Positions 11,132-63,125 of a stretch of 64,000 nt of DNA are shown here, one piece after another. The notes below the pieces were generated by a model that was not told where the DNA came from, did not search any database, and saw only the letters and a program-made list of their open reading frames with translations. This DNA is from Octopus vulgaris (taxonomy: Eukaryota): NCBI GenBank assembly GCA_951406725.2, contig OX597835.1:7750001-7814000 (forward strand), in the 5' to 3' direction. Positions within the stretch are counted from its first letter, which is position 1, and each line of letters starts with the position of its first letter. The translations under genes were made by a program, and so were the position numbers.

Positions 11132-12514
11132 TAAAAAAAAGGACGGAAGGAAATGAGAGGGAAGAATCGATGTCAAGACTTTATCATTCTAAGAGTACGA
11201 GCGGCAACGTTGATCTCCGGGATTTGAAATAGAAATTAGAGAGCCGGAACGAATGCCACAAAACATTCTGACCTTTCACCAACTAAGGTTGGCACTAGTA
11301 CTTTACTGGTACTCTCTGTTATCGATCTCGGAAGGACAAAAGACTTCGACGATATTTGGACCTAAAAACCTAGAGCAAATCCTGCAAGACATCTGATTAA
11401 GGATTCTGGCAGTCTATCACACTATATTGGTTTCAAATTTTGGTACAAGGCCAGCAATTTCACGAATGGGGATAAGTCACTTACATCGACCCGAGGGCTC
11501 AGTTGGTAGTTATTTGATCAACTCCAAAATGATGAAAGGTAAATTCGACCCCGGAAGAAATGATCCTAAACACATTTTACAATACGGTAACGATTCTTCT
11601 AGCCTGCCGCCTTAGTCTACCATACTGTACTAGAAATGCTAGTAATAAACCCTGCTTCTTACTTAAACACAAAAAAGAGTGAAGAACAGGATCGTCATGG
11701 TTGGAACGCATTTAATCGTAATCCTGTTTAATCTGGTTTGACCTGATATTATACAACGAATGAAGACCCAATGAAATGGGTGAAATGATAAATATAGCAA
11801 TTGTGTATATTTCTTTTTGAAAATCGATCCAGTGTTTGAACAGATTAAAAGTGTAATAAAAAGAAACTATTAAAGTAAATTAATGACATCAAACTATCAT
11901 CATTGATCTGTCGATTGATAGAAATCAGTATAAAGTCGATATTTTAACAGCAAAGTTGAAAAAGAAAATATACCGAACATGTTTATACAGTTTCTTGTTA
12001 TTAACATTTATGTTGATGGTATAAAATTATTGGCTTTTTTTCTGGAGACTGTTCTTGCTTTCATCTTTCGAATCTACATTCTGTGAGTAAATGAGAAAAC
12101 GTGGGTGTATTTGTGTGGTCTGTTGGTCGGCTTGAAATAGAAGTAATGTTTCATGCATATACAAAATGTGCACTATTTCAAAGCACAGATTGGATATTAA
12201 GATACGCATATATTCATGAAAGTCAGGGTTATCATTATATGTCAACTCTATTAGGATTCCAGCGGCTTTCCACTCTTGAGTTAATATGAGACTTGCGTGC
12301 GATTGTTTGACTTCTCCAAATTATAAGTGATTGCTTTAGTAAATATTTAGATGATGAATTTCTGGATAGACTTTCCTTGGAAATAAGACGTAGTGGTCAT
12401 GTATGGAGAAACTTTGAAGAGGACTGCTTAAAACCTACTTTTTTTCATTTTCCTTTGAAGAACGTTCAGAGTGACAACTGTGTGGAATGCACTGTATATC
12501 CTAAAACACTACTC

Positions 12515-12900
12515 TCTCTTTCTCTTTTACTCTTTTACTTGTTTCAGTCATTTGACTGCGGCCATGCTGGAGCACCGCCTTTCGTCGATCAAATCGACCC
12601 CGGGACTTATTCTTTGTAAGCCCAGTACTTATTCTATCGGTCTTTTTTGCCGAACCGCTAAGTGACGGGGACGTAAACACACCAGCATCGGTTGTCAAGC
12701 AATGCTAGGGGGACAAACACAGACATACAAGCACACACACACACACATATATATATATACGACAGGCTTCTTTCAGTTTCCGTCTACCAAATTCATTCAC
12801 AAGGCATTGGTCGGCCCGGGGCTATAGCAGAAGACACTTGCCCAAGATGCCACACAGAGGGACTGAACCCGCAACCATGTGGTTGGTTAGCAAGCTACTT
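12515..12900 (-). mobile_element. SINE family B, nearly full length
   Basis: Matches the other family B copies. Confidence 0.85.
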
Positions 12901-12925
12901 GTCATGTTGTCTCGTAATTAGGGCT

Positions 12926-12979
12926 GGACCTACCACTGAAGAAGCGCAGTATTCTGAAATCACGTGATCTGGCAGTTCC
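12926..12979 (+). ncRNA. Minimal type I hammerhead ribozyme, canonical core
   Basis: ctacca-CTGAAGA-ag(cgcagtatt)ct-GAAA-tcacgtga-TC-tggcag; stem III is palindromic (ATCACGTGAT). Predicted AUC cleavage after 12969. Confidence 0.7.
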
Positions 12980-13035
12980 GATGCTCATACCAGACGGTTC
13001 TCGTCTGTTACGATACCCTCAATGCCATTTGGGAT

Positions 13036-13082
13036 TGATGGACACCGGGTGTTTCACCATTTTTTGTGGCTTGTCAACATGA
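13036..13082 (-). ncRNA. Hammerhead ribozyme with a U3:A8 variant core, antisense copy
   Basis: - strand reads atg-TTGACAA-gcca(caaaaaa)tggt-GAAA-cacccggt-GTC-cat. Confidence 0.6.
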
Positions 13083-13334
13083 GTAACCCGCCGGCGATAT
13101 CTAAGGGTATATATCCTGCTATGCTATTGGAGCCACCGGAAAATACACAAAACATATGCATTCATTAAATGTATGTAGTTACTAATATTTATTATACCAG
13201 AGATGCTTTTATTTCATATCTAAATATTCCCTGGGATATTCAATTTCAGGCCATGCCAGCTCGTGATTTTACAAGCCATGAGCATAAAAGTCGTGGACTG
13301 GTTAGGCGATTTGCCTTCAACCCTGGCGAGTACG

Positions 13335-13380
13335 TGATGTTGACAAGCCACAGCAATGGTGAAACACCCGGTGTCCATCA
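13335..13380 (+). ncRNA. Hammerhead ribozyme with a U3:A8 variant core
   Basis: tgatg-TTGACAA-gcca(cagcaa)tggt-GAAA-cacccggt-GTC-catca: 5-bp stem I, 4-bp stem II, near-palindromic stem III. Predicted GUC cleavage after 13375. Confidence 0.7.
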
Positions 13381-13475
13381 CTCTCGACTGGGATTCAGGG
13401 TGAGTTATCACCCCTGCCCATGGTCCTGTGGTGTTTTAACAATGTACAAAGCATATGCATTAAGTATATGTAGTT

Positions 13476-13476
<1 letters not shown>

Positions 13477-13570
<94 letters not shown>

Positions 13571-13625
13571 TATTAATAATAATGATAATGATGATGATAA
13601 TAATGATGATGATGATGATGATGAT

Positions 13626-13683
<58 letters not shown>
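13477..13683. repeat. (TAA/TGA)n microsatellite, 5' flank of the Dong-like element
   Basis: Simple repeat visible in the sequence. Confidence 0.95.
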
Positions 13684-14894
<1,211 letters not shown>

Positions 14895-15042
14895 AGAAGA
14901 TCATGGAATTTAGCTATATCTTTAATGTATTCCTTATGTGAATGTAAGAGGATGTCCTTTAGAACCGTTTTCAAATCTATCTTCTCCATTTTTATTGTAT
15001 ATTAGAAATCGTCTTCTTACTCATTAAAATGATGTATATTAA

Positions 15043-15216
<174 letters not shown>

Positions 15217-15636
15217 GTTGTTATCTTTTTTTCTTATTCTTTCAAATTTGCTTCCATTTCTTGCCGAGTATCTTCCCGACTCCTAGGGCAAAGAAACTCA
15301 TAGTATATGTGAAAAAAATAAGTTCAAGTAGAACAATTCAAACTATTTTTGGTGGTGGGGTCCAAAAAGATATATTTTTAATAAATATTCTTCATATAAA
15401 AAAAAATAGCTTGCTATAAACAAGCATTTAAAACATGAAAATAACAAGTAAATAGCTTTACGTAGTTTGTAGTAAAGTGTGTGTTGATATATTTGTTCTG
15501 ATACTCCAGGAAGAAATTTTAATCCAAACCACGCGTTTAATGAACCAAGCATCATTTTATCAAAGGAAGAGAGACAGCCACTACCTAACCTAAATTAATA
15601 GTAGAATGCACTCATACACATTCATATTCGTATATA

Positions 15637-16053
15637 TATTTCTTTACTACCCACAAGGGGCTAAACACAGAGGGAACAAACAAGGACTGATAAATGGATT
15701 AAGTCTATTACATCGACCCCAGTGCGTAACTGGTACTTAATTTATCGATCCCGAAAGGATGAAAGGCAAAGTCGACCTCGGCGGAATTTGAACTCAGAAA
15801 GTAGCGGCAGACGAAATACCTATTTCTTTATTACCCACAAGGGGCTAAACACAGAGGGGACAAACAAGGACAGATATAGGTATTAAGTCGATTACATCGA
15901 CCCCAGTGCGTAACTGGTACTTAATTTATCGACCCCGAAAGGATGAAAGGCAAAGTCGACCTCGGCGGAATTTGAACTCAGAACGTAACGGCAGACGAAA
16001 TACCGCTAAGCATTTCGCCCGGCGCGCTAACGTCTCTGCCAGCTCGCCGCCTT
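15637..16053 (-). mobile_element. SINE family C (Nin-like central domain GCCTTTCATCCTTTCGGGGTCGATAAATTAAGTACCAG), head-to-tail dimer with one 13-bp TSD
   Basis: Unit of about 184 bp repeated; TSD atattcgtatata at 15624-15636 and 16055-16067. Confidence 0.85.
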
Positions 16054-16346
16054 AATATTCGTATATAGGCGCATCATTTTTCTTGGGTTGGTTCGAACTC
16101 AGGTTTAACGCAGGTTTATCAGTCTCTTTTTCAATTTGCACCTGAAGGTGATTTACAAATGGATCGATCAAAATTAGCGATTAAAAATTATATAAAACAA
16201 GAGGAATGAGGTTAAAAAGGAACTGAAATTTCAGTTCTTAATATTATTTTTGATATTGTATGCGTTAATATCGAAAAGATTTGATAATGTTAATGGCAAT
16301 AAGAGTGAATGCGGGCGCACGCGCATTTGTGATTGTTTGCGTATGT

Positions 16347-16385
<39 letters not shown>

Positions 16386-16992
16386 TCTATGTGCGCGTGT
16401 GTTTGGAAATAGCCGTCGAGCACAGGGCAGCTGGCGTTACTATGATTGATTGCTTGATAGTTTTTCAGAGAAGGTTTGATATGGCGGACGATTGTTTGAT
16501 TAAAATCTGCCGAAAGCAGAAATCATGCTTTTATTCCCAGAATCCTCTACCCCTACCCTACCCCCACCCCACACCTAAACACACACACAAATACTTCCTA
16601 ATGTGATTTCCTGGTCCTACTTGAAGATGAATGTAAAGAGAGATCTAGTTGTCTTGCAGCAGGATTTTATAACTGTTGAGTGAAGAATATGGCTTTATTC
16701 GAAATGGGTGTGAGTTGGGGTGGTTGGGTAAAAGGATCGGTGGAAGAAAGAAGCACTTAACTCAAGTGGAAGAGTCGAAAAGACTTTTGCCTCGAAGATA
16801 TCTGCGATACCATTTTGTTCACTGGTTTATTCCCTTTCATCTTTTTCGTTTGTTTCCTCTTTTAATTTCTTGTTAATTTTGTTAATTTAGTTTGTACGTG
16901 TCTCTGTGTTAGTGTTTTTGAGTGTCTGTACGTATATGCGTGTATATAAAGAAAGATATTAAGAAAGAGAAAGCGTAAGATACACACACACG

Positions 16993-23250: not shown

Positions 23251-23760
23251 TTGGGTTGGCAACTAGGTTCCCACCGCTTTTTAAAATTTGGGAATTTAGT
23301 GCGCTTATAAATTTTTGAATCTATTCGGTTTTTTCCGTGGTCAATTTAAGTTCATTTTTGTTTATTTTCAGATCATTAAAATGGAATGTCAATTTAAGAA
23401 AAACGAGCATTTTCGACACATCCTTCTTTTTGCTTTTAATCAAGGTTCTAGTGCCGCAAAAGCTGCTCGTGGCACTTGTGTTGTTTATGGAGAGGGTGCT
23501 ATAGCTGAAAGAACCGCTCGTGATTGGTATGCCAAGTTCAAAAATGGAAATTTTGACCTCAAAGACGCAGCTCGTTCTGGTCGTCCAGTTGAGTTCGATG
23601 TAGAGTGATTAAACCAACGTTTGCACAAACATTCTCGTCAAGGGAACTGGCAGAGAAAATGGAATGCACCCACACTGCTATATAGAGAAGCATCTTCACT
23701 CGATGGGAAAGTTTCAGAACTATAGTTATATGAGTTCTTGCAACCTTACAAGGTTGCAAG
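23251..23760 (+). mobile_element. Mariner (mellifera-like) 5' portion: left terminal inverted repeat (TIR) and truncated transposase
   Basis: TA followed by TTGGGTTGGCAACTA; from ATG 23381 it reads MECQFKKNEHFRHILLFAFNQG...VYGEGAIAERTARDWYAKFKNGNFDLKDAARSGRPVEFD, with a premature stop at 23608. Confidence 0.85.
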
Positions 23761-38856: not shown

Positions 38857-39281
38857 TGGCGTTGTAGCCGTCATCGTTATAATCAGTTGCAGCGCCAATA
38901 TATTCCCATTTCATTTTTTTACTTCTGAAACGACATCAGTTGAATGCCGAACAAAATGTCGTCCTTTTTGTTTTTTTTTTATTAAATTTAATTTTGTCCA
39001 TTTGTATTTTGTTTTCAAATAATTTTAAAGTTTGACTTTGCTTTTCATCTTCCCGGCGTCGATTAAACTAAATATTGAATAACTTAACTGCTTCTGAATG
39101 TTGTGGCGTTGTGTCTAAATCATTTTCTTTTTGATGTTGTTGATATTGTTAATATAGAGTAGATGGTTAATTTTCTGGTCAACGATCTTACGCCTCTCTT
39201 AGCATTATTCACTTGCGTGGACACGGGGAACAGAGTGACACAGAAAATTAACGATGATAATGAGTCACCTTGAAAAATACC

Positions 39282-39700
39282 TATTTCTTTATTACCCACA
39301 AGGGGCTAAACCCACAGAAGGGACAAACAAGGATATACAAAGGTATTAAGTCGATTACATCGACCCCAGTGCGTAACTGGTACTTAATTTATCGACCCCG
39401 AGAGGATGAAAGGTAAAGTCGACCTCGGCGGAATTTGAACTCAGAACGTAACGACAGACGAAATACCTATTTCTTTATTACCCACAAGGGGCTAAACACA
39501 GAGGGGACAAACAAGGACAGACATAGGTATTAAGTCGATTACATCGACCCCAGTGCGTAACTGGTACTTAATTTATCGACCCCGAGAGGATGAAAGGTAA
39601 AGTCGACCTCGGCGGAATTTGAACTCAGAACGTAACGACAGACGAAATACCGCGAAGCATTTCGCCCGGCGCGCTAACGTTTCTGCCAGCTCACCGCCTT
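39282..39700 (-). mobile_element. SINE family C head-to-tail dimer with one 18-bp TSD
   Basis: TSD gtcaccttgaaaaatacc at 39264-39281 and 39704-39721. Confidence 0.88.
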
Positions 39701-42040: not shown

Positions 42041-43247
42041 TCGATCCTACTGCATGTCGAGCAAAGCTTTGTTGTCATACCCTGGGTTGTGAGTGAAAAT
42101 GTTACTTGGAATTAACTTGCATTATGTTTGTTGTTACTATCTTTCAACCCCAGGTCAGGACTGACTGAATTCATTTACGATCAATGTCATTTCAATGAGA
42201 TCCTACCGTATTTTTCTATATAACGAATAATATTGTCTAACCCGTACTTCCTTTTAAGACAATGGTGTGATTTGAGGAAAATTAGACTCCTTATTTCTAG
42301 TATATCGAGCATTCGCCTAGAACAGAGGTTCTTGTAGCGTTTTTTATGAACGAACTTTGTCACGCACTCCAGGTTTTTGAAATGACTGGCAACTCACCAA
42401 ACTAATTTTATTATTACAGGTAGCTAGCAAAAGGCCCGATGGGAATATTAGTCAGAATATATCAGTGAAAAACAATGAGAATTCTTCATCTTGGAAATTC
42501 AGACAAAATCGATTTTGAACAGCGTCTGTGTACCGTTCTTCCTTCAATCTGTCGCGCTCGCTAGGTCACTCGGTTATACAAGGCATAAACACTCGCGCGC
42601 GCGTACACACACACATACGTATCCACGCGCGTTCGCACGCGCACACGTGCGTGCACGCACAGACACATGCATACGTACATATCTCGTAACCTAGAGAGCG
42701 ACGTTAGCGTTGACAAGAAGCGTAGCCTCTCCTGGACCTGCGATAGATACATTACATCCCACCTAGAAGGACATGCTTTCGTTATCCAGGAACAGGAACT
42801 ACTAAATACTTGATGAACAAGGACAAAGATACCACCAAACCGCCACGTTATGATAAAAAATGTCGAGTCTGCTATACTAGTGGGGAACCTAATTTATGTA
42901 ATAGCCTGCTCGGGTTGGAGTCATCAGTACATTGGACAAACGAGTTTAATTTTGAGGAAGAGAATCACTCTGCATAAGGAGCAAATCCGTTTCCCGCATT
43001 ACAGACAAATTCCTCTTAGTGAACACATAGAAAAATGTGCAGGTAACATCAAACCAAATTTTACAGTCTTCCCTTTCTACCAGTGCAAAGACACAATCTC
43101 TCAACTAGAACGCTTAAATAAAGAAACTTTTTTTAATTGAAAAATACAAAACGCGTCTTAATAAGCACGCATAACCAATTTTTATATTTTTACATATTAC
43201 ATCACTGTACATAAATCCCCTACTAAACAAGCATATAAATTAAACAT

Positions 43248-61532: not shown

Positions 61533-63125
61533 ATGGTCGTGCAAAAGTTTTCGGTCACCTTCCTTAAACCAATCAAGATACTGTGTTTTAAAATAGAAAA
61601 ATGTCCAAAATGAAAATTTATTACATAATGTTCATTTCTAGAAATTACTGTACATCATTGATATTTCGTGTGGCTTCCCTTAGCGTAAATAATTGCTTCA
61701 ATGCACCTGGGAAGAGATGTATGCAAACCCTTCACCATCTTCACAGGTATGAGATGCCATTCTCTGTGGCTGAGCTCCCACAACTCTTCAAGTTTGGGTG
61801 GATTCTTCTGACGGAACTCTTCTCTTTAGTTCTGTCCACATTTACTCGATGATATTTAAGTCAGGTCTCTGAGCTGCCCAATTTTTAATACGGTAACAGA
61901 CTCTATTGTGTGATCTGTGAAACGGAGCTCCATCTTGCGGAAAATTCTCACCTTCATCCAAGTCTGGTATCAAAGGTGTTCGTCAACAACAGAATGTATT
62001 TGGCACTCATCAAGTTACCGTCGATTTTTACCAACTTTCTAGAAACATCACTTTTTATGTATCTCCAAACATCAGACTCTTACCCCAAACGTCACTGTTT
62101 TCGTCGTGTAATTACCGTCGATTTTTACCAACTTTCTAGAAACATCACTTTTTATGTATCTCCAAACATCAGACTCTTACCCCAAACGTCACTGTTTTCG
62201 TCGTGTAATTACCGTCGATTTTTACCAACTTTCTAGAAACATCACTTTTTATGTATCTCCAAACATCAGACTCTTACCCCAAACGTCACTGTTTTCGTCG
62301 TGTAATTACCGTCGATTTTTACCAACTTTCTAGAAACATCACTTTTTATGTATCTCCAAACATCAGACTCTTACCCCAAACGTCACTGTTTTCGTCGTGT
62401 AATTACCGTCGATTTTTACCAACTTTCTAGAAACATCACTTTTTATGTATCTCCAAACATCAGACTCTTACCCCAAACGTCACTGTTTTCGTCGTGTAAT
62501 TACCGTCGATTTTTACCAACTTTCTAGAAACATCACTTTTTATGTATCTCCAAACATCAGACTCTTACCCCAAACGTCACTGTTTTCGTCGTGTAATTAC
62601 CGTCGATTTTTACCAACTTTCTAGAAACATCACTTTTTATGTATCTCCAAACATCAGACTCTTACCCCAAACGTCACTGTTTTCGTCGTGTAATTACCGT
62701 CGATTTTTACCAACTTTCTAGAAACATCACTTTTTATGTATCTCCAAACATCAGACTCTTACCCCAAACGTCACTGTTTTCGTCGTGTAATTACCGTCGA
62801 TTTTTACCAACTTTCTAGAAACATCACTTTTTATGTATCTCCAAACATCAGACTCTTACCCCAAACGTCACTGTTTTCGTCGTGTAATTACCGTCGATTT
62901 TTACCAACTTTCTAGAAACATCACTTTTTATGTATCTCCAAACATCAGACTCTTACCCCAAACGTCACTGTTTTCGTCGTGTAATTACCGTCGATTTTTA
63001 CCAACTTTCTAGAAACATCACTTTTTATGTATCTCTAAACATCAGACTCTTACCCCCCACTGTTTTCGTCGTGTAACGCGGGTCGGCTCCCTTTCCTGGA
63101 GGCCTTCTGACAAATTCTTGATTAT
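61533..63125 (-). mobile_element. Decayed Tc1-like transposon (DDE region and 3' end) containing a tandem array
   Basis: - strand reads EFVRRPPGKGADPRYTTKTVGGKSLM...KLVKIDGNL.SAKYILLL...FPQDGAPFHRS...WAAQRPDLNIIE.MWTELKRRV...WHLIP...SLPRCIEAIIYAKGSHTKY; TIR-like GTGCAAAAGTTT at about 61539. Confidence 0.85.
62015..63076. repeat. Tandem array, 11 x 97 bp, derived from Tc1 transposase coding sequence
   Basis: Units start every 97 nt from 62015 to 62985; the first ten look identical by eye and the eleventh is a variant. Confidence 0.95.

Follow-up and report, generated by a model that had tools for sequence, protein, structure and literature searches.

Several described systems come close to the locus presented here. 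Penelope-like elements (PLEs) of Schistosoma carry hammerhead ribozymes with a U3-A8 core and low activity in vitro, and dual hammerheads are described on opposite strands, about 100–700 bp apart (PMC4209133). PLE copies are reported to occur as partial tandems that bear, at the 5' end, an inverted copy truncated on its 5' side (PMC8557442), and head-to-head junctions with palindromes have been interpreted as self-priming (PMC3846280). Insertion of a PLE in vitro needs no hammerhead cleavage (PMC11167929). Non-LTR retrozymes, including units of 350–390 bp in mussel, were described by Cervera and de la Pena 2020 (PMC7229834); according to Li et al. 2026 (10.64898/2026.07.22.740005) they derive from PLE pseudo-LTRs, with cleavage in one of nine tested. 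One ribozyme per polarity is regarded as a hallmark of viroid-like RNAs (PMC10162972).

The locus analysed here lies in a stretch of 64 kb (contig OX597835.1, 7750001–7814000; the window, in which all positions are counted) of the 2.8-Gb, microsatellite-rich genome of Octopus vulgaris. It contains three hammerhead motifs within a few hundred nucleotides, two on the forward strand and one on the reverse strand. With a probability of about 85%, we read it as two repeats side by side: a fragment of roughly 95 nt from one family (A) and, directly next to it, a copy of another family (B) in which a partial tandem and an inverted arm are joined head-to-head. On this reading, Penelope-like enzymes likely inserted both in the distant past, and both are probably inert today.

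Overall organization of the locus

The features of the locus and its neighbours are listed in Table 1. Judged from the sequence, the three motifs are worn parts of two unrelated dispersed repeat families rather than one cassette, and the two forward-strand hammerheads belong to different families.

Table 1. Features of the hammerhead cluster and of the adjoining sequence
Feature	Position	Strand	Description
SINE-like interspersed repeat	12516..12900	+	left neighbour, abuts the family A fragment; homology stops at 12900
Family A fragment	12922..13015	+	about 95 nt of a unit of about 330 nt, 5'-truncated; may extend back to about 12906
Hammerhead 1	12930..12975	+	family A; C3-G8 core 12936-12942, palindromic stem III, predicted cleavage after 12969
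Family B inverted arm, truncated	13015..13092	-	carries hammerhead 2
Hammerhead 2	within 13015..13092	-	family B; U3-A8 core 13077-13071, predicted cleavage after 13041
8-nt palindrome	13089..13096		head-to-head junction of the two B copies; read from the sequence
Family B direct copy	13093..13444	+	one full non-coding unit of about 340 nt, 43% GC
Hammerhead 3	13334..13381	+	family B; U3-A8 core 13340-13346, 6-bp stem I, predicted cleavage after 13375
Family B second unit, start only	13441..13478	+	partial tandem, with about 45 nt deleted ahead of it
Right neighbour	13478..14895	+	(TAA)n arrays 13478-13684 and 14758-14895 around a 5'-truncated non-LTR retrotransposon

Both strands of the window were searched with a descriptor of the type I hammerhead (CUGANGA or UUGANAA as core), which gives exactly three matches, all inside the cluster. 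Thirty dinucleotide shuffles gave three matches in total at a loose setting and none at the stringency reached by the real three. An Rfam scan of the window, which left the hammerheads unrecognised, gave no match at the gathering score. The three hammerhead motifs placed here by the first-pass annotation are thus borne out by the descriptor search and its shuffle control. The inverted repeat that it had put at about 44 bp is present and is larger than that: the arms (13015–13092 and 13325–13401) are identical in 66 of 79 columns and contain a perfect stretch of 26 nt (13036–13061/13355–13380). Such a stretch has a chance of roughly 1 in 10 at 84% identity and could hint at conversion or selection. 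The direct repeat of about 30 nt is likewise real (13142–13196/13441–13491), being the start of the second tandem B unit rather than a separate motif.

A contig of run X1 covers positions 12899–13472 with 30 differences and one gap in 575 letters. Since it spans the whole arrangement, the layout is no assembly artefact, and since it differs by 5%, the layout is old enough for such divergence.

The left neighbour, which we take to be a SINE, is represented by 11 further copies or fragments in the window, with identities of 70–96%. The open reading frame of the right neighbour (13974–14660) matches zf-RVT with an E-value of 1.7e-5, below the cut-off, and gives weak matches to R2 proteins (E 0.001–0.005). 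Elements of the Dong type target (TAA)n (PMC7998251), and the right neighbour is a separate insertion, likely of an R4/Dong-like element, a clade assignment that we infer. Elsewhere in the window there are a mariner remnant with a Mos1-type transposase helix-turn-helix (23300–23605, forward strand; HTH_48, E 3.2e-20), a very homogeneous tandem array of 11 copies of a 97-nt unit with 99% matches (62015–63076) and two head-to-tail dimers of one 184-nt repeat (15637–16004 and 39275–39651).

Family B

When the genome is searched with positions 12880–13480, the B repeat is returned over about 13093–13444, with 432 first-look candidates, 40 of which were scored. The B profile matches the direct copy of the window with an E-value of 1.6e-93, and at another locus (L004) a natural copy matches the window unit with 77% identity over 355 columns. 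A 27-nt B pattern has 193 matches genome-wide, and its reversed control none; scaled by the 17 of 38 known copies that match the pattern, this gives a rough minimum of about 430 copies. The period of B is 295–299 at the window locus and 331–348 at other loci. Same-strand consecutive B hammerheads occur at a few loci (L015, spacing 348; L021, spacing 337; and L160), and the longest blocks found reach about two units (L021 and L160), with no long arrays. A more diverged sister subfamily (L098–L125) has the hammerhead region in common with B, and two of its loci, L109 and L110, have the head-to-head, opposite-strand hammerhead geometry seen in the window.

The only resemblance of the segment 13015–13092 to other loci is to the B hammerhead in reverse complement. 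It stops in mid-unit, where most other B arms run to the usual 3' end. A rare stem III variant is common to both window arms: its 21-mer has three exact matches genome-wide, two of them here, and seven when one mismatch is allowed, which points to a single template. This variant, the palindromic junction, the arm ending in mid-unit and other deletions at the locus would also fit an origin of the inverted arm in a local DNA-level event after insertion, either fold-back repair or an inverted duplication at the palindrome. We nevertheless regard such an event as improbable. Inversions are head-to-head at 34 of 108 A and B loci and never tail-to-tail, the polarity expected of an insertion mechanism, and the two arms, at 82–84% identity, are no closer to each other than to the best other copies, so that the duplication should be about as old as the insertion.

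Family A

The genome search for family A gave 140 candidates, of which 40 were scored, and similarity to the window is confined to 12922–13015, where the A profile matches with an E-value of 3.7e-34. Tandem periods of A at other loci, obtained by self-comparison, are 293–337 nt. An A-specific pattern has 43 matches genome-wide and none in the reversed control, and scaling by the 11 of 29 known copies that match gives a rough minimum of about 110 copies. The similarity between A and B is no better than E 0.28. No further A sequence was found by profile search in 11800–16500, and the remainder of the unit was not found on either side of the fragment, also after excision of the SINE in silico.

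In run X7, which is only guessed to be RNA, record 24 is an 813-nt contig with a depth of 90 that carries a family A hammerhead (12934–12977, four differences); some A copy may be well expressed if this guess holds. At locus L049, a family A copy has a LanC-like coding stretch (2467–2946; PF05147, E 9e-33), probably a host exon, at a distance of about 1 kb.

Arrangement at other loci

The loci compared are the best-scoring or best-matching copies rather than a random sample, and overlapping loci (L027, L064, L099, L115, L121 and ten duplicate A loci) were removed before counting. An inverted B copy in head-to-head disposition is present at 20 of 59 other B loci (13/28, 2/4 and 5/27), and B hammerheads are on both strands at ten of these 59 (6/28, 0/4 and 4/27). 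For A, 14 of 49 other loci are head-to-head and two have hammerheads on both strands. Tail-to-tail inversions are present at none of the 59 B loci and none of the 49 A loci. Within about 1.5 kb on each side, A is beside B at 0/49 other A loci and 0/59 other B loci; one A-profile match in the B locus L109 is of low complexity (bias 29.9 over a score of 14.5, without a hammerhead) and was discarded. The first-pass annotation had proposed that the three ribozymes form a unit, but the arrangement recurs at none of the 108 other loci. The mundane alternative that it had offered, adjacent or inverted Penelope-type terminal repeats, is the one favoured by the presence of two unrelated families and by the lack of A-B adjacency at these 108 loci. 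Motifs of unrelated elements found together only here were also what the first-pass annotation had itself named as contradicting its proposal.

Both units fit the description of a short non-coding repeat (about 170–400 nt) with one type I hammerhead, and no Pfam family was found in the open reading frames overlapping them. Among 237 open reading frames of at least 90 amino acids in the A and B loci, 60 were scanned against Pfam, revealing two reverse transcriptases. As autonomous partners both were rejected: one lies in a (TAA)n-flanked R4/Dong-like insert and the other belongs to a PLE fragment that a SINE and a microsatellite separate from the repeat.

Conservation of the hammerheads

The pairs of the hammerhead are formed in 89% of cells for B, against 21–47% in slid controls, and in 86% for A, against 16–44%. 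Covariation is modest in both families. For B there are 17 cells with double changes (2/500 shuffles), eight of which are a U-A to C-G swap in stem III that marks one subfamily; for A there are 14 (0/500 shuffles), eight of them C-G to U-A changes at CpG sites, which may be decay. The commonest core pair in B is U3-A8 (25 of 38 copies), and the G-U at 10.1-11.1 of both window B motifs is shared by 14 of 38 copies. Divergence from the column majority has a median of 15% among the copies and is 14% for the two window copies.

Hammerhead 3 is the best preserved of the three. Measured against family A, hammerhead 1 shows two uncompensated changes, an A-C mismatch in stem I and a disrupted pair in stem II, and hammerhead 2 retains three of the six pairs of stem I. 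For the motifs in isolation, the predicted cost of reaching the active fold is 8.0 kcal/mol (hammerhead 1), 9.8 kcal/mol (hammerhead 2) and 3.7 kcal/mol (hammerhead 3); the predictions concern secondary structure and take no account of tertiary contacts or kinetics.

Predicted folding of transcripts

One reading suggested by the layout takes the locus for the DNA form, as copy or as template, of an ambisense RNA of the viroid-like kind: hammerheads 1 and 3 would excise 12970–13375, and the resulting circle would replicate with hammerhead 2 acting on the opposite polarity. Putatively self-cleaving motifs are present in both polarities, and the 406-nt RNA is predicted to fold strongly, at -148 kcal/mol as a circle (z -9.9). 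In asymmetric replication, processing of one polarity suffices. The rod-like fold, however, derives solely from the inverted duplication, as z is -9.9 with the arm and -1.4 for the unit alone. The complement is transcribed ahead of the B hammerhead in either direction, and in a transcript containing the complementary arm the predicted cost rises to 45–51 kcal/mol for hammerhead 3 (45 with the upstream arm, against 3.7 alone) and to 59 kcal/mol for hammerhead 2, against 9.8 alone; the two B ribozymes are thus predicted to mask each other. Joining 13375 to 12970 brings the B core to the A 3' strand, with a stem I of two G-U wobbles followed by a mismatch, so that the proposed circle is predicted to lack a working forward-strand ribozyme at its junction. 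A stem III heterodimer of A and B is weak at -3.1 kcal/mol, compared with -14 to -15 kcal/mol for the homodimers, and the stem changes in the motifs are uncompensated. Together with the arrangement being confined to this locus among the A and B loci compared, these predictions make a viroid-like origin extremely unlikely, and the 406-nt viroid-like RNA of the first-pass annotation is not upheld: its fold is due to duplication, its B ribozymes are predicted to be masked and its junction to be defective.

Three runs guessed to be RNA gave 6, 13 and 8 contigs at 80% likeness, all less than 95% alike and thus from other copies of the families. None spans the stretch and none contains a 13375-to-12970 joint; contigs can show neither ends nor absence, so this is not counted as evidence.

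A related scenario is that PLE head-to-head insertion mass-produces ambisense hammerhead hairpins, that a template jump between A and B added a third ribozyme here, and that a read-through transcript would release the 406-nt self-complementary RNA, amounting to the birth of a viroid-like RNA from retroelement debris. We give it a very slim chance.

The same hairpin could instead have been retained by the host as a cis-acting element, either as a long hairpin for small-RNA or editing pathways or as a ribozyme that ends read-through transcripts. The 79-column inverted repeat with its perfect 26-nt core would give a stable duplex RNA if transcribed, and the 95%-identical X1 contig preserves the whole arrangement. 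Like hairpins are nevertheless present as an insertion by-product at 10 of 59 B loci, the window copies are as diverged as the family median, and no host exon was recognised among the 41 window open reading frames scanned, a scan that short exons would escape. Retention by the host is accordingly very unlikely in our estimate.

Penelope-like elements in the genome and origin of the locus

The genome contains a young, high-copy PLE with an open reading frame for a reverse transcriptase plus GIY-YIG domain of 781 amino acids and many intact copies (L161:1245-3587 and 4566 (G000:C16), and L074–L097). A minimal U3:A8 hammerhead is located about 1 kb downstream of this open reading frame in 14 of 30 GIY-YIG loci. 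An extra CxxxxCxxC motif ahead of the GIY-YIG domain suggests that the element belongs to the Neptune clade. In the window, a GIY-YIG fragment (42817–43137, forward strand; Pfam E 2.6e-6) is 51% identical to it. Among the 70 of 148 GIY-YIG matches that were examined, none has A or B adjoining a PLE open reading frame, and one locus (L076) contains an unlinked, hammerhead-less piece of A. PLE protein matches among the A and B loci are limited to L028 and L158, where other repeats lie between them and B; the PLE at L158 was considered as a partner of B and rejected as a coincidental neighbour. As neither A nor B adjoins a PLE open reading frame at the loci examined, the mobilising element is one that we infer; such a partner may be extinct or unsampled.

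In the favoured reading of old insertions by Penelope-like enzymes, progenitor B loci would have been transcribed as RNAs of more than unit length, which their type I hammerheads, dimerised by way of the palindromic stem III, could cut. The reverse transcriptase and GIY-YIG endonuclease of a PLE would then have copied a B RNA into an AT-rich target, and self-priming at a short microhomology would have switched strands, which would account for the inverted arm, for the palindrome at the junction and for hammerheads on both strands. After insertion, the locus would have decayed. As to the nature of the two families, non-autonomous retrozyme-type elements are what we would expect them to be, with good but not strong confidence; that they are solo pseudo-LTRs of extinct PLEs is possible, at odds of about half as good.

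The 3' end of A directly meets the 3' end of the inverted B arm. Under uniform chance, 0.003–0.07 A-B pairs within 100 bp would be expected genome-wide, so that their direct abutment is unlikely to arise in that way. We lean towards separate insertions followed by a deletion, in which shared AT-rich targets plus the deletion would have brought A to B. A template jump within one insertion is a tentative second choice: one continuous cDNA would have run along B, turned back on itself and gone on with an A RNA as its new template. The orientations agree with such a jump, and three other A copies (L032, L033 and L133) have their ends close to that position. By either route, the three motifs do not become a functional cassette.

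As read here, the locus is of little importance: a known class gains two hammerhead repeat families that are probably uncatalogued. It also carries a caution: hammerheads in both polarities combined with a rod-like fold are routine in animal DNA, as they arise by head-to-head insertion (12 of 108 loci sampled), and since the pattern arises routinely, it is by itself no sign of a viroid-like replicon. A stable or replicating ambisense circle, if the locus released one, would offer a testable route from retroelements to viroid-like RNAs. A template jump at the A-B junction, were it borne out, would show directly that two unrelated retrozyme families are mobilised by a single PLE enzyme.

Comparison with known systems

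A and B are probably two undescribed families of non-LTR retrozymes or pseudo-LTRs, and their debris at this locus is ordinary. A search of published papers found none that treats either family or that derives ambisense viroid-like RNAs from inverted PLE ends; the families may already be catalogued, for instance in Repbase or Dfam. The U3-A8 core, opposite-strand pairs 100–700 bp apart and palindromic head-to-head junctions are all already published for PLEs.

The locus resembles Avsunviroidae-type viroid-like circular RNAs (PMC10162972) in that both polarities carry a hammerhead within about 350 nt and that a rod-like or branched fold is predicted. Unlike these RNAs, it is chromosomal DNA of mixed origin and its two polarities are duplicates of one motif; the 406-nt piece is without terminal redundancy, and no working forward-strand ribozyme is predicted at its junction.

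The likeness to PLE pseudo-LTRs (PMC4209133, PMC8557442, PMC3846280) is closer in architecture: a partial tandem plus an inverted, 5'-truncated copy joined head-to-head at a palindrome, the U3-A8 core variant, and opposite-strand hammerhead pairs a few hundred bases apart. In contrast to pseudo-LTRs, no reverse transcriptase/GIY-YIG open reading frame adjoins A or B at the loci examined, and their hammerheads are not of the minimal form, having full stems of 6 and 4 bp and a palindromic stem III.

From the metazoan non-LTR retrozymes (PMC7229834, 10.64898/2026.07.22.740005), A and B differ in being seen as monomers to approximate dimers only, in copies that are about 15% diverged, and in the U3-A8 core of B; the window locus is without two same-family hammerheads on one strand. 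They are like these retrozymes in being non-coding units of about 330–345 nt, with less than 45% GC in B, and in having one type I hammerhead per unit with a 6-bp stem I, a 4-bp stem II and a palindromic stem III. Like the retrozymes, they occur as monomers and dimers, in a genome that also contains PLEs.
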